Shown: piece after piece, positions 8,257 through 14,749 of the stretch | Position numbering within the stretch: the first letter of the stretch is position 1 | Layout: each line of letters starts with the position of its first letter | Assembly (NCBI RefSeq): GCF_045037415.1 | Contig: NZ_CP173438.1 | Reading direction: 5' to 3' (one strand) | Origin: Escherichia coli | Lineage (GTDB): Bacteria > Pseudomonadota > Gammaproteobacteria > Enterobacterales > Enterobacteriaceae | Length of the DNA stretch: 64,000 nucleotides | Translations under genes and position numbers: made by a program | The notes under the pieces: model-generated | What the model was told of the DNA's origin: nothing | Database searches by the model: none | Seen by the model: the letters and a program-made list of their open reading frames with translations, nothing else

Positions 8257-9717
<1,461 letters not shown>

Positions 9718-9767
9718 TAATTTCAGTATTTTCAGAAGGATAATTAATCCTTCTCCGTGCACGAACG

Positions 9768-9799
9768 GTCCCCTCGCCCCTCTGGGGTTAGGGGAACCC
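9768..9799. repeat. GC-rich imperfect palindrome (TCCCCTCGCCCCT...GGGG..AGGGGAA), copy 1
   Basis: ggtcccctcgcccctctggggttaggggaacc in the tldD-aaeR convergent spacer; related copy at 25927..25961. Confidence 0.4.
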
Positions 9800-9838
9800 G
9801 TCGGCACAGGTTTGTACAACGTAACAGTACAATATTAA

Positions 9839-10768
9839 TTACTTCTCTTTCCCGCGCCCGTGCATCTCCTGAAACAATTTACCGACCTCAACAAAATAAT
9901 CCGTCAGCGAGTTGATCACGACCTGTACCTTCAGCGGCAGCTTATCTTTTTCGGTATATAACGCATAAACCGGGCGTGGATCTGACTGGTAACGTGGCAG
10001 CAGGATCTCCAGCTCCCCACGATTGATCTCGTTGATCACCCACATCAGCGGCACGTAGGCGATCCCGGCACCCGCCGTCAGCCAGCGCACCAGCGTCATC
10101 GGATCATTAGTCACAAATCTTCCTTGTGGGATCAGGCGAGTCGAGATCCCTTCCGGTGCGATCAGTTCAAATTCATTGTCGGGCCGCACGCTGTATTCAA
10201 GCCATGAGTGACTACTTAAATCGGCGGGTTTTTCCGGTATGCCGTATTGTGTGAGATAGCTTTTTGCGGCGCACACCACCATTGGCATCGCGCCCAGACG
10301 GCGGGAAAACAGGCTGGAATCTTGCAACGCGCCGACGCGGATCACCACATCCAGACCGTCGGCAATCAGGTCGGGGGCAGGAATTCCGGTAACCAGATTG
10401 ACGCTCAAACCTGGGTATTCTTTCAGCATTTTTGCTGTCAGCCCGGCGAGAACATTTTGTGCCATAGTTGAAGAACAGCCAATGCGCAGCGTCCCGATGG
10501 GGGTGTTATTGAAGGCATACAGTTGCTCATGAACATCCTGCACTTCATGGAGCATCCGACGGCAGCCCTGGTAGTAAATTCTACCGGCTTCGGTCAGGCC
10601 AATGCTGCGTGTGCTACGGTTTAACAGCTTTACCTGCAACTCATCTTCCAGTTTTGACACCGTCTGACTGATGGACGAAACGCTCATCTGTAGCTGTCTG
10701 GCGGCGGCGGTAAAAGAGCCAAATTCAACTACTTTGGCAAACACCGACATGCGTTTTAGTCGTTCCAT
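9839..10768 (-). CDS. aaeR: LysR-type transcriptional activator AaeR
   Basis: 309-aa ORF with N-terminal LysR HTH (FTAAARQLQMSVSSISQTVSKLE); divergent from aaeXAB. Confidence 0.9.
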   Translation of the reverse strand: MERLKRMSVFAKVVEFGSFTAAARQLQMSVSSISQTVSKLEDELQVKLLNRSTRSIGLTEAGRIYYQGCRRMLHEVQDVHEQLYAFNNTPIGTLRIGCSSTMAQNVLAGLTAKMLKEYPGLSVNLVTGIPAPDLIADGLDVVIRVGALQDSSLFSRRLGAMPMVVCAAKSYLTQYGIPEKPADLSSHSWLEYSVRPDNEFELIAPEGISTRLIPQGRFVTNDPMTLVRWLTAGAGIAYVPLMWVINEINRGELEILLPRYQSDPRPVYALYTEKDKLPLKVQVVINSLTDYFVEVGKLFQEMHGRGKEK

Positions 10769-11161: not shown

Positions 11162-12094
11162 GTGAAAACACTAATAAGAAAATTCTCCCGTACGGCCATC
11201 ACGGTCGTATTAGTCATTCTGGCCTTCATCGCAATTTTTAATGCCTGGGTCTATTACACCGAATCCCCGTGGACGCGTGACGCGCGCTTTAGCGCTGACG
11301 TCGTTGCGATCGCGCCGGACGTTTCTGGACTCATTACCCAGGTGAATGTTCATGATAACCAGCTGGTGAAAAAAGGACAGGTACTGTTCACCATCGACCA
11401 GCCGCGCTATCAAAAGGCGCTTGAGGAAGCGCAAGCCGATGTTGCTTATTATCAGGTACTGGCACAGGAGAAACGCCAGGAGGCCGGACGTCGTAACCGT
11501 CTCGGTGTGCAGGCGATGTCCCGCGAAGAGATCGACCAGGCCAACAACGTACTACAAACGGTTCTGCATCAGTTAGCGAAAGCGCAGGCGACCCGCGATC
11601 TGGCAAAACTGGATCTTGAACGCACGGTGATCCGCGCGCCAGCAGATGGCTGGGTGACCAACCTCAACGTCTATACCGGTGAGTTTATTACCCGTGGATC
11701 AACGGCGGTTGCGCTGGTGAAACAGAACTCCTTCTATGTACTGGCCTATATGGAAGAAACTAAGCTGGAAGGGGTGCGCCCTGGGTATCGTGCGGAGATC
11801 ACGCCGCTTGGCAGTAACAAAGTGCTGAAAGGGACTGTTGATAGTGTTGCCGCAGGGGTCACCAATGCCAGCAGCACGCGTGACGACAAAGGGATGGCGA
11901 CCATCGACTCTAACCTTGAATGGGTACGTTTGGCGCAACGTGTTCCGGTACGTATTCGTCTCGACAACCAGCAAGAGAACATCTGGCCTGCGGGCACCAC
12001 TGCTACGGTGGTAGTCACTGGCAAACAAGATCGCGACGAAAGTCAGGATTCGTTCTTCCGTAAAATGGCTCATCGCCTGCGTGAGTTTGGTTAA
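11162..12094 (+). CDS. aaeA: p-Hydroxybenzoic acid efflux pump, membrane-fusion subunit AaeA
   Basis: 310-aa ORF, GTG start, single N-terminal TM, HlyD-like family. Confidence 0.9.
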
Positions 12095-12099
12095 TCACG

Positions 12100-14067
12100 A
12101 TGGGTATTTTCTCCATTGCTAATCAACATATTCGCTTTGCGGTAAAACTGGCGACCGCCATTGTACTGGCGCTGTTTGTTGGCTTTCACTTCCAGCTGGA
12201 AACGCCACGCTGGGCGGTACTGACAGCGGCGATTGTTGCCGCCGGTCCGGCCTTTGCTGCGGGAGGTGAACCGTATTCTGGCGCTATTCGCTATCGTGGC
12301 TTTTTGCGCATCATCGGCACATTTATTGGCTGTATTGCCGGACTGGTAATCATCATTGCGATGATCCGAGCACCATTATTGATGATTCTGGTGTGCTGTA
12401 TCTGGGCCGGTTTTTGTACCTGGATATCCTCGCTGGTACGAATAGAAAACTCGTATGCGTGGGGGCTGGCCGGTTATACCGCGCTGATCATTGTGATCAC
12501 CATTCAGCCGGAACCATTGCTTACGCCGCAGTTTGCCGTCGAACGTTGTAGCGAGATCGTTATCGGTATTGTGTGTGCAATTATGGCGGATTTGCTCTTT
12601 TCTCCGCGATCGATCAAACAAGAAGTGGATCGAGAGCTGGAAAGTTTGCTGGTCGCGCAATATCAATTAATGCAACTCTGTATCAAGCATGGCGATGGTG
12701 AAGTTGTCGATAAAGCCTGGGGCGATCTGGTGCGACGTACTACGGCGTTACAAGGTATGCGCAGCAACCTGAATATGGAATCTTCCCGCTGGGCGCGGGC
12801 TAATCGACGTTTAAAAGCGATCAATACGCTATCGCTGACGCTGATTACCCAATCCTGCGAAACTTATCTTATTCAGAATACGCGCCCGGAATTGATCACT
12901 GATACTTTCCGCGAATTTTTTGACACGCCGGTAGAAACTGCGCAGGACGTCCACAAGCAGCTCAAACGCCTGCGGAGAGTGATCGCCTGGACCGGGGAAC
13001 GGGAAACGCCTGTTACCATTTATAGTTGGGTCGCGGCGGCAACGCGTTATCAGCTTCTCAAGCGCGGCGTTATCAGTAACACAAAAATCAACGCCACCGA
13101 AGAAGAGATCCTGCAAGGCGAACCGGAAGTAAAAGTAGAGTCAGCCGAACGTCATCATGCAATGGTTAACTTCTGGCGAACCACACTTTCTTGCATTCTG
13201 GGCACGCTTTTCTGGCTGTGGACGGGCTGGACTTCCGGCAGTGGTGCAATGGTGATGATTGCGGTCGTGACGTCACTGGCAATGCGTTTGCCGAATCCAT
13301 GCATGGTGGCGATCGACTTTATCTACGGGACGCTGGCAGCGCTGCCGTTAGGGCTGCTCTACTTTTTGGTGATTATCCCTAATACCCAACAGAGCATGTT
13401 GCTGCTGTGTATTAGCCTGGCAGTGCTGGGATTTTTCCTCGGCATAGAAGTACAGAAACGGAGATTGGGCTCGATGGGGGCGTTGGCCAGCACCATAAAC
13501 ATTATCGTGCTGGATAACCCGATGACTTTCCATTTCAGTCAGTTTCTCGACAGCGCATTAGGGCAAATCGTCGGCTGTGTGCTCGCGTTCACCGTTATTT
13601 TGCTGGTGCGGGATAAATCGCGCGACAGGACTGGACGTGTACTGCTTAATCAGTTTGTTTCTGCCGCTGTTTCCGCGATGACTACCAATGTGGCACGTCG
13701 TAAAGAGAATCACCTCCCGGCACTTTATCAGCAGCTGTTTTTGCTGATGAATAAGTTCCCAGGGGATTTGCCGAAATTTCGCCTGGCGCTGACGATGATT
13801 ATCGCGCACCAGCGCCTGCGTGATGCGCCGATCCCGGTTAACGAGGATTTATCGGCGTTTCACCGACAAATGCGCCGCACAGCAGACCATGTGATATCTG
13901 CCCGTAGCGATGATAAACGTCGTCGGTACTTTGGCCAGTTGCTGGAAGAACTGGAAATCTACCAGGAAAAGCTACGCATCTGGCAAGCGCCACCGCAGGT
14001 GACGGAACCAGTACATCGGCTTACGGGTATGCTCCATAAGTATCAACATGCGTTGACCGATAGTTAA
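12100..14067 (+). CDS. aaeB: p-Hydroxybenzoic acid efflux pump subunit AaeB
   Basis: 655-aa polytopic membrane ORF directly after aaeA. Confidence 0.9.
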
Positions 14068-14070
14068 GTC

Positions 14071-14099
14071 AAAACCGACGCCTGAAGCGTCGGTTTTTT
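14071..14099 (+). terminator. Rho-independent terminator after aaeB
   Basis: aaaaccgacgc-ctgaa-gcgtcgg followed by tttttt, 4 bp after aaeB stop. Confidence 0.7.
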
Positions 14100-14158
14100 C
14101 ATGGCTATACTTAGCGATGAACGGCAGAACTCGCCGCGAAACGTGACGGTGGCAACAG

Positions 14159-14431
14159 ATGAATATTTATACCTTTGATTTTGATGAGATTGAGAGTCAG
14201 GAGGATTTTTATCGTGACTTTAGCCAAACCTTTGGTCTGGCGAAAGATAAGGTACGCGATCTCGACTCACTATGGGATGTGTTAATGAACGATGTCCTGC
14301 CGCTACCACTTGAGATTGAATTTGTTCATCTGGGAGAGAAAACGCGTCGCCGTTTTGGCGCGTTAATATTGCTGTTTGATGAGGCAGAGGAAGAGCTGGA
14401 AGGGCATTTGCGTTTTAATGTTCGTCATTAG
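14159..14431 (+). CDS. yhcO: Barstar-like protein YhcO
   Basis: 90-aa [30 protein letters not shown]..., barstar-like fold family. Confidence 0.8.
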
Positions 14432-14433
14432 CG

Positions 14434-14458
14434 CAAAAAAAGCCCCCGAACCGGGGGC
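14434..14458 (-). terminator. Rho-independent terminator of yhcN (hairpin shared with yhcO 3' end)
   Basis: gccccc-gaacc-gggggc hairpin; on the minus strand it is followed by a U7 tract (A-run 14435..14441 on plus). Confidence 0.65.
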
Positions 14459-14485: not shown

Positions 14486-14749
14486 TTATTTGTACAGTTC
14501 AGCCGTAGCGTGCCAGGTGTCACCACTACGAGCTTCAGTAATCTGGTAGGCCGTTGCGCCTTTCTCTTCCGCTTTTTTGTTCAGCATTTCACGCATATCC
14601 ATTGGCGAAGACGCCACACCACTTACGGATACGGTCCCGATTGCTTCACGATTTTGTGCTTGTGCAGCATCAATGGAGTCGGCAGCGAATGCACCGAAAG
14701 AGAGAACAGAAAGTACGCTTAATGCAGCAACAGTGGTTTTGATTTTCAT
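14486..14749 (-). CDS. yhcN: Periplasmic DUF1471-family stress protein YhcN
   Basis: ORF-track frame 14486..14800; start chosen at ATG 14749 (MKIKTTVAALSVLSVLSFGAFA, signal peptide) with GAGGT Shine-Dalgarno 7 nt upstream; 87 aa. Confidence 0.8.
   Translation of the reverse strand: MKIKTTVAALSVLSVLSFGAFAADSIDAAQAQNREAIGTVSVSGVASSPMDMREMLNKKAEEKGATAYQITEARSGDTWHATAELYK

Follow-up and report, generated by a model that had tools for sequence, protein, structure and literature searches.

The orphan barstar-family gene yhcO of Escherichia coli and its probable origin in a ribonuclease-inhibitor operon

Introduction

Barstar of Bacillus amyloliquefaciens (PF01337; PDB 1BRS, 1A19) is the inhibitor of barnase, a secreted ribonuclease (RNase). 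Escherichia coli encodes a protein of the same family, YhcO, whose gene we examine here in a stretch of 64,000 nucleotides from contig NZ_CP173438.1 (the window). YhcO resembles barstar in its fold, its length of about 90 residues and its acidic character, and it retains the LDxLWD motif of helix 2 (barstar D35, W38 and D39) together with E76 and E80; its orthologs in other Enterobacterales are encoded directly 3' of a barnase homolog. By contrast, E. coli has no adjacent or detectable RNase gene, as judged by a translated search (tblastn) of the window and a genome search at the DNA level. YhcO further differs from barstar in that Y29, Y30, G31 and N33 are replaced by D, K, V and D, a residue is inserted after T42 and W44 is lost, and its gene is preceded by a sigma-S-type candidate promoter of its own instead of being co-transcribed with an RNase gene.

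The closest relatives by position are the barnase-barstar operons of Serratia, Yersinia, Hafnia, Xenorhabdus and Proteus, annotated as 'ribonuclease N', 'ribonuclease Ba' or 'barnase' plus 'barstar family protein'. Their barstars are positional orthologs of YhcO, encoded past tldD/aaeXAB and, in some, an aldehyde dehydrogenase (ALDH) gene; they are 45–57% identical to it and share a common C-terminal block, but they keep the RNase, tight intergenic gaps, an FG.NLDALWD motif and darP-pmbA on their 3' side, where yhcO is followed by yhcN-argR. The Imm-Barstar proteins of polymorphic toxin systems belong to the same superfamily (Zhang et al., 2012; PMC3482391), and the notion of an immunity gene that outlives its toxin applies to yhcO as well. 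Yet yhcO lies outside toxin/immunity arrays, has no Rhs, contact-dependent inhibition (CDI) or type VI secretion system (T6SS) neighbor, and is a vertically inherited core gene; rather than the strain-variable, mobile distribution of immunity genes, we found a clade that is monophyletic and syntenic across genera. Orphan or 'domesticated' antitoxins, a general phenomenon, offer a parallel, as they likewise lost a harmful partner while the protective one was kept and its regulation rewired. Type II toxin-antitoxin systems are different, given the export-type N-terminus of the ancestral RNase and the nature of barstar as a stable inhibitor without a DNA-binding domain. YhcO is neither a polymorphic-toxin immunity cassette, nor a type II antitoxin, nor a known defence component.

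The gene, the fold and the 'barnase inhibitor' label were known before: structure 2CX6 was released in 2005, the name is assigned by the Prokaryotic Genome Annotation Pipeline (PGAP), and RefSeq already lists 'yhcO: barstar family protein', although one paper states that E. coli has no barstar gene (PMC8403359). Literature searches on yhcO function, orphan barstars and enterobacterial barnase turned up nothing beyond entries in transcriptomes or regulons and a motility phenotype in Salmonella, and no published test of RNase inhibition by YhcO was found in the searchable literature. In the following, we present evidence that yhcO very probably descends from an RNase-linked operon whose RNase gene has been lost. 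Apparently new in this study, as none of it was found in the searchable literature, are the deletion of the RNase from a still recognizable operon, the descent of the orphans from a single origin and their strong conservation, the remodelling of the contact loop and the sigma-S-type element.

Results

YhcO is a barstar-family protein

The yhcO open reading frame (ORF) begins with ATG and comprises 90 codons plus a stop. An initial annotation of the window, made from the DNA sequence alone, had described its product as barstar-like, and a profile hidden Markov model search bears this out: YhcO matches the Pfam Barstar model PF01337 over residues 1–81 of 90 with E=2.1e-9 and 37.6 bits, above the gathering score of 23.4. 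This single barstar domain is the only one that Pfam detects, with no DNA-binding domain, and none of the NCBIfam models matched. The protein is 100% identical to E. coli YhcO in PDB 2CX6 and 77% identical to the structure from Salmonella Typhimurium (5F4C); with B. amyloliquefaciens barstar, BLASTP aligns 77 residues at 27% identity (E=5e-6). An AlphaFold2 model with a mean confidence (pLDDT) of 95.8 superimposes in Foldseek on 2CX6 with a template-modelling (TM) score of 0.99, and on the barstar chains of 1BRS, 1B3S and 1A19 with a TM score of 0.81 (E ~1e-4), chain 1BRS_D being that of the barnase complex. With 21 aspartate and glutamate versus 10 lysine and arginine residues, its isoelectric point is 4.5. 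By its sequence, its three-helix, three-strand alpha/beta fold and its core motif, YhcO is a member of the barstar family, and it departs from this family in two tested traits, namely the cognate RNase and the conserved contact loop.

The orthologs of other Enterobacterales are paired with an RNase

A search of 1.8 billion cluster representatives yielded only 112 relatives of YhcO at E<=1e-3, and we located the contigs of the full-length homologs with 35–60% identity. On those from Xenorhabdus and two metagenomic Enterobacterales, the homolog lies directly 3' of a gene whose product matches PF00545 (Ribonuclease, the barnase/N1/T1 family) with 52–65 bits, and this pair in turn is found directly 3' of yhdP-(CN hydrolase)-tldD, genes that in E. 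coli lie upstream of the aae operon. We then scanned one genome per GTDB species, which gave 80 loci; for each species, 20 kb were examined and annotated in tblastn searches that used marker proteins of E. coli as well as RNases as queries. In 67 loci, an ORF for a PF00545 barnase-family RNase directly precedes the yhcO homolog. Pairs within the tldD/aae neighborhood occur in Serratia, Yersinia, Rahnella, Ewingella, Rouxiella, Hafnia and Edwardsiella as well as in Xenorhabdus, Photorhabdus, Proteus, Providencia, Arsenophonus and Budvicia. The initial annotation had raised the idea that yhcO might be the remnant of a toxin-immunity module and had proposed to look for a lost upstream gene in relatives; this gene is found there, in the same neighborhood, which supports the remnant idea and shows that the stand-alone context of yhcO is not universal.

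The linked RNase ORFs encode 137–267 residues with a hydrophobic, signal-like N-terminus. Their catalytic domains are 52% identical to barnase, and in a representative alignment of ten linked RNases with barnase, the barnase residues K27, R59, E73, R83, R87 and H102 are invariant. The distance between the end of the RNase gene and the start of the barstar gene ranges from -17 to +32 nucleotides and mostly from -4 to +5, which suggests translational coupling. The ancestral pair is a secreted RNase with a cytoplasmic inhibitor for self-protection, rather than a classical toxin-antitoxin or polymorphic-toxin cassette.

The gene orders fall into four arrangements. Yersiniaceae and Hafniaceae (Serratia, Yersinia, Rahnella, Ewingella, Rouxiella, Hafnia and others) show tldD-aaeR-aaeXAB-ALDH-RNase-barstar-darP-pmbA, and Morganellaceae and Budviciaceae (Xenorhabdus, Photorhabdus, Proteus, Providencia, Arsenophonus, Budvicia and Limnobaculum) rng-yhdP-tldD-RNase-barstar. 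Without an RNase gene, the order tldD-aaeR-aaeXAB-ALDH-yhcO-yhcN-argR-mdh is found in Enterobacter, Lelliottia, Citrobacter amalonaticus, Kosakonia, another enterobacterium, Erwinia mallotivora and the metagenomic P0127 contig; Escherichia, Salmonella and Klebsiella have tldD-aaeR-aaeXAB-yhcO-yhcN-argR-mdh and also lack the ALDH gene. Thus, yhcN adjoins yhcO only in the RNase-less lineages, whereas darP and pmbA follow the barstar gene in the paired ones. Since an ALDH ortholog (70–95% identical) is present in RNase-linked and RNase-less arrangements alike, it brackets the exact spot of the missing RNase gene.

In Enterobacter, Citrobacter and Kosakonia, aaeB and yhcO are 1.5 kb apart, and we considered this gap as the site of a replacement toxin, but it contains this aldehyde dehydrogenase (PF00171), which is also located upstream of the RNase gene in Yersiniaceae and is therefore a synteny anchor rather than a partner. 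It encodes about 484–508 residues and lies between aaeB and yhcO at roughly 8430–9955 in the respective loci (L010, L012–L015, L019, L022, L024, L087), the equivalent of 14068–14158 in the window. With its absence from Escherichia, Salmonella and Klebsiella, the gene has a patchy distribution that is at odds with the usual relationships among genera, yet these three genera share the terminator and CTATACTTA junction described below. In Yersinia pestis (L036, 7881–9313), the ALDH gene appears in two overlapping tblastn pieces (query residues 31–383 and 375–508), which suggests a frameshifted pseudogene; in other Yersinia it is a single piece. Weak tblastn matches of the N-terminus of a Rahnella 'RNase' to orphan loci proved to be an artefact of an over-extended ORF that runs out of frame into the 3' end of the ALDH gene.

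Several homologs depart from this picture. The RNase of Xenorhabdus vietnamensis (L065, 9169–9972) has 267 residues, compared with 137–190 in the others, and its signal-like N-terminus is separated from the catalytic domain by a long tandem repeat rich in Pro, Thr and Ser ('QGTVPLTKPS...'). Erwiniaceae have a second kind of RNase-barstar pair, 31–42% identical to YhcO, at another locus without tldD/aae markers (L054, L058, L060, L067, L068, L079, L080, L086 and L046, from Erwinia, Pantoea, Mixta, Winslowiella and 'Enterobacter cancerogenus M004'). As the RNase of the last differs from that of Erwinia sp. S63 by two residues and has the same flanking layout, this genome may be misnamed. Two further hits, yhcO at 100% identity on a 241-bp scaffold of Corynebacterium lipophiloflavum (L016) and aaeB plus yhcO at about 71% identity on a 422-bp contig of Hydrogenophaga intermedia (L020), most likely reflect contamination of these assemblies with enterobacterial DNA. 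P0214 (255 residues, on a 1.5-kb contig from the European Nucleotide Archive, ENA) has its barstar domain at 173–251, behind an additional N-terminal part, and P0029, P0031 and P0032 (137 residues, short ENA contigs) are identical to YhcO over 80 residues before a match to PF04397 (LytTR); the latter three are probably chimeric or mis-assembled gene calls.

The RNase-less genes form a single clade

No RNase gene was found within 10 kb of yhcO in any of the 15 orphan loci. In neighbor-joining trees built on about 90 alignment columns, the 15 RNase-less sequences group together in every one of 60 bootstraps, and the stem of their clade measures 0.196 substitutions per site. A single orphan clade points to one ancient deletion instead of repeated losses. 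No trace of this deletion was recognizable by tblastn in the loci of E. coli, Salmonella, Klebsiella, Enterobacter or other core Enterobacteriaceae, and the 91-nucleotide spacer between aaeB and yhcO and that between tldD and aaeR gave only noise with five and then about 65 RNase queries.

More recent losses of the same kind can be seen elsewhere. Hafnia psychrotolerans (L050, 9819–9995) retains a 58-codon RNase remnant, '...GRRGTDRVLFASDG------QHNRQRVRVE', which matches the RNase C-terminus with E=2e-6 and lacks the segment with the catalytic histidine. In Edwardsiella ictaluri (L071, 9849–9995), the RNase is cut down to 48 residues. In both species the barstar gene is intact and encodes the ancestral FG.NLDALWD motif; they represent independent, recent RNase decay, an early stage of the same kind of loss.

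The RNase-contact loop is changed, the acidic plug is not

We compared the residues of 64 RNase-linked homologs with those of the 15 orphans. The central contacts, among them the acidic DxxxD motif of helix 2, are kept throughout: barstar L34, D35, W38, D39, E76 and E80 correspond to YhcO L35, D36, W39, D40, E75 and E79. D36, W39 and D40 are invariant in alignments of 27 and of 80 homologs; E75 and E79 are present as well. Mutational work by Schreiber and Fersht, together with the 1BRS structure, reportedly attributes most of the barstar binding energy to these residues.

The surrounding loop, however, differs between the two groups. Position 30 (barstar numbering) is F in 64/64 paired sequences and K in 15/15 orphans, position 31 changes from G (63/64) to V (15/15), and position 36 from A (64/64) to S (15/15); position 33, N in all paired homologs, is D in 10/15 orphans. 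An extra residue after position 42 is present in all orphans and only 4/64 paired sequences, and position 46, variable in the latter, is P in 14/15 orphans. YhcO thus has the loop D30-K31-V32-R33-D34 in the place of Y29-Y30-G31-x-N33 in barstar and F-G-x-N in the RNase-linked homologs of Enterobacterales. Compared with the synteny-matched proteins of Yersiniaceae and Hafniaceae, there are five fixed differences in the whole protein, four of which are located within YhcO 28–49 (Fisher p=0.013).

The new loop residues are invariant across Escherichia, Klebsiella, Kosakonia and E. mallotivora, and the pattern recurs in the metagenomic orphan P0127 (61% identical), where the pair reads Q-V. None of the RNase-linked genes carries the orphan motif, and none of the ancient orphans the ancestral one. 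These alignments point to a single change, focused on the RNase-contact loop before helix 2 and the turn after this helix.

Orphan yhcO is under purifying selection

The ratio of nonsynonymous to synonymous substitution rates (dN/dS; Nei-Gojobori) between two Escherichia species is 0.056 at a dS of 0.43. Across the orphan pairs with estimable dS it is 0.04–0.08, dS being saturated for most pairs from different genera; the RNase-linked genes, at 0.035–0.126, lie in the same range. The yhcO frame is intact, with 89–94 codons, in all 15 orphan species. Orphan yhcO is under strong purifying selection and is not decaying.

The locus in E. coli and its transcription signals

The features of the locus are listed in Table 1. 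In the window, aaeX, aaeA and aaeB precede yhcO on the same strand, while yhcN is convergent and is followed by argR and mdh; the neighbors named in the initial annotation agree with this, as do its coordinates for yhcO. Its statement that the window contains no barnase-type RNase partner holds as well, as tblastn with barnase, RNase Sa and three enterobacterial barnase homologs gave a best E-value of 0.25, which is noise. Within 20 kb of yhcO, there are no toxin, Rhs or secretion genes. We also considered yhcN as a functional partner and rejected it, as it is convergent and encodes an exported DUF1471 protein instead of an RNase. A 2.6-kb region around yhcO is 100% identical to that of strain Z247 and 98% identical to that of the K-12 derivative J53, and 5425 of the 5426 complete E. 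coli genomes have it, at 95–100% identity and always in the same context.

Table 1. Features at the yhcO locus, with positions counted from the first nucleotide of the window
Feature	Position	Strand	Description
yhcO CDS (coding sequence)	14159..14431	+	ORF; PF01337; identity to PDB 2CX6; fold match; residue mapping
YhcO acidic plug residues, kept			D36, W39, D40, E75, E79
YhcO clade-specific residues			K31, V32, S37, inserted N44, P48
Sigma-S-type extended -10 element (candidate)	14105..14113	+	CTATACTTA; invariant in Escherichia, Salmonella and Klebsiella; 46 nt 5' of the start codon
aaeB intrinsic terminator	14075..14099	+	Stem CCGACGC/GCGTCGG, 5-nt loop, T6 run; read directly from the sequence
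yhcN terminator	14434..14458	-	G+C-rich hairpin GCCCCCGGTTCGGGGGC followed by T run; 11 nt past the yhcO stop; terminator-like site in pattern scan
aaeA	11162..12094	+	
aaeB	12100..14067	+	Upstream neighbor and synteny anchor; ALDH and RNase genes intervene before the barstar gene in other families
yhcN	14486..14749	-	DUF1471 / YdgH_BhsA-like periplasmic stress protein; convergent, downstream of yhcO

An intrinsic terminator behind aaeB sets yhcO apart from the aaeXAB operon and is conserved in E. coli, Salmonella and K. pneumoniae; a terminator pattern scan of the region missed this hairpin and its T6 run. Directly past it lies CTATACTTA, with a -10 hexamer TATACT at 14106–14111 and a C at -13. 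It fits the sigma-S -10 consensus, KCTAYRCTTAA, and was not called by a generic sigma-70 scan. The element is unchanged in the upstream regions of Escherichia, Salmonella and Klebsiella (L009, L011, L017, L018, L021), while the flanking bases vary; none of the RNase-linked loci has it, nor do the orphan loci that contain ALDH (Enterobacter, Citrobacter, Kosakonia). From this conservation, CTATACTTA is likely to be the candidate promoter of yhcO itself. On the other side of the gene, the yhcN terminator (GCCCCCGGTTCGGGGGC) probably also ends yhcO transcripts.

Published data place yhcO in stress responses. It is listed as RpoS-dependent in O157:H7 (PMC2907692), is induced by a rapid acid shift (PMC2270276) and is bound and activated by LldR (PMC10272880). 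In Salmonella, deletion of the barstar-domain gene STM3363 increases swarming with an unchanged number of flagella (PMC4534456).

Discussion

The explanation that we consider best, and on the whole reasonably probable, is that YhcO is a stranded barstar that was retained and repurposed. In early Enterobacterales, an operon of two genes, one for a secreted barnase-family RNase and one for its cytoplasmic inhibitor, would have been located downstream of tldD/aaeXAB. A clean deletion in the ancestor of the core Enterobacteriaceae (and of at least Erwinia mallotivora) would have removed the RNase gene and left the barstar gene behind. The stranded yhcO would then have become a core gene under strong purifying selection, and in Escherichia, Salmonella and Klebsiella it would have gained a sigma-S-type candidate promoter of its own. 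Its contact loop would have been remodelled a single time, by F to K, G to V and A to S exchanges, one inserted residue and a proline at position 48, and would have stayed constant since; the residues that plug the basic active site, D36, W39, D40, E75 and E79, would have been kept.

Today, the small, acidic and cytoplasmic YhcO would be made in stationary phase and under acid or lactate stress, and its helix 2 and acidic side chains may cap a basic nucleic-acid- or phosphate-binding surface on a partner other than the lost RNase. Such a repurposed binder, with active-site capping and a new endogenous partner, seems plausible to us, though we would stop just short of calling it probable. Still more tentatively, we suggest that YhcO, a barstar scaffold whose acidic, phosphate-mimicking face is preserved while its specificity loop is new, has been neofunctionalized to bind and regulate an endogenous basic RNA- or nucleotide-binding protein within the RpoS-dependent stationary-phase and acid/lactate response.

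The main alternative, protection against RNases delivered in trans as also raised in the initial annotation, is that YhcO is an orphan immunity protein, which neutralizes injected barnase-type or BECR-fold RNase toxins (from T6SS, Rhs, CDI or Tc tips) or RNases that leak from neighbors such as Serratia, Proteus, Hafnia and Bacillus, all of them RNase secretors. The invariance of the main barnase-binding residues (barstar D35, W38, D39 and E76) and the strong purifying selection, by which YhcO must do something, are in line with this idea, as is the overlap of Enterobacteriaceae habitats with those of many RNase-making Enterobacterales. In addition, gammaproteobacterial polymorphic toxins with barnase tips and Imm-Barstar proteins exist, delivered via T6SS, RHS or TcdB/TcaC (PMC3482391), so that with an intact acidic plug, the alternative stays alive. 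However, the linked RNases consist of a signal-like N-terminus and a catalytic domain and lack a module for receptor binding or translocation with which they could reach the cytoplasm of another cell. As a rule, orphan immunity genes are variable parts of the accessory genome, whereas yhcO is a core gene and uniform across genera, and the F-G contact pair of the 64 RNase-linked homologs has become K-V, with an insertion, in all orphans. Furthermore, Bacillus barnase is toxic or lethal to E. coli unless barstar is co-expressed (PMC8403359), even though these cells carry yhcO on their chromosome. No PADLOC defence family matches YhcO at E<=1, and barnase-type genes that it might counter were found neither on enterobacterial plasmids nor in any phage record. 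We therefore regard orphan immunity as rather unlikely, and the loop change, the core-gene distribution and the lethality of barnase argue against a general anti-barnase role for YhcO.

The conserved plug residues would also be expected if the pair were still working, with YhcO as the unlinked inhibitor of a barnase-family RNase encoded elsewhere in the E. coli genome, but we deem this very improbable. We know of no N1/T1/barnase-family enzyme in the RNase catalog of E. coli K-12, the 15 orphan loci lack a nearby RNase gene, and blastn in distant mode, with an RNase gene of Serratia as query, gave no match among 5,426 complete E. coli genomes. On enterobacterial plasmids, tblastn detected no copy, its only non-Firmicute matches being two 4-Mb Proteus mirabilis records. 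Among the best 120 of 7,228 profile matches in 5.8 billion proteins, all are from Serratia, Yersinia, Hafnia, Xenorhabdus, Proteus, Edwardsiella and relatives, and none is named Escherichia, Salmonella, Klebsiella, Citrobacter or Enterobacter, despite the huge sampling of these genera. Finally, yhcO could be a functionless relic, a decaying leftover for which too little time has passed or which hitch-hikes between useful genes. Its ancestral partner is gone, no function is known and knock-outs are viable (PMC4534456), but the low dN/dS at saturating synonymous divergence across genera, a reading frame that is intact throughout the 15 orphan species and in 5425 of 5426 E. coli genomes, the invariance of the clade-specific residues themselves, and the conserved promoter element with its regulated expression all contradict decay. 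As no antisense ORF or RNA evidence overlapping yhcO was seen that might distort dN/dS, the selection data exclude this last explanation for all practical purposes.

We favor a retained barstar with an endogenous partner for four reasons: in contrast to typical orphan immunity genes, yhcO belongs to the core genome, is uniform and is wired to RpoS; neighboring genera make simple Sec-type RNases, which have no route into the cytoplasm of another cell; the STM3363 deletion raises swarming (PMC4534456); and Bacillus barnase cannot be expressed in E. coli without barstar (PMC8403359).

Several points weigh against this interpretation. Neither this study nor earlier work names a binding partner of YhcO. 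The kept residues D36, W39, D40 and E75 are equally expected if YhcO still inhibits some barnase-type RNase, and the loop could have changed together with a variant RNase that was lost afterwards, yet none of the 64 paired genes carries these changes. The argument from barnase toxicity is confounded by expression level, as yhcO is a stationary-phase gene. Our search for an RNase in E. coli genomes compared DNA and used a single query from Serratia, so that barnase domains which have diverged, such as one in an Rhs or T6SS toxin tip, would escape it. The motility phenotype bears on yhcO through our assumption that STM3363 is its ortholog, which we take from the domain description in the respective paper and the gene order of strain LT2. 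This phenotype is also mild and was reported without complementation (PMC4534456).

A further caveat concerns Edaphovirga cremea (L057), which NCBI assigns to the Enterobacteriaceae, but whose barstar gene is RNase-linked and flanked by darP. Its TldD and AaeB are 85% and 65% identical to those of E. coli, values typical of Yersiniaceae. Conversely, Erwinia mallotivora, a member of the Erwiniaceae, has the orphan arrangement. The loss thus maps to the core Enterobacteriaceae plus at least one Erwinia and does not coincide exactly with any family as named.

The biological stakes are moderate, in that we offer an evolutionary explanation for a known orphan rather than a new type of system. YhcO, for which two crystal structures exist, is one of the remaining 'y-gene' products of E. 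coli K-12. The RNase deletion at a defined point, the strong selection and the rebuilt loop turn it into a testable question, namely what role a barstar plays once barnase is gone, and the intact RNase-barstar pairs of Serratia, Yersinia, Proteus and Hafnia are natural partners for direct tests. Barnase and barstar are standard tools in E. coli, used for counter-selection, protein-interaction screens and biocontainment, and an endogenous YhcO could matter for these applications if it is cross-reactive. Beyond that, the answer bears on the domestication of immunity and inhibitor proteins after toxin loss: if our interpretation is true, yhcO would be a documented case of an RNase inhibitor or immunity protein that was domesticated into a core stress regulator.

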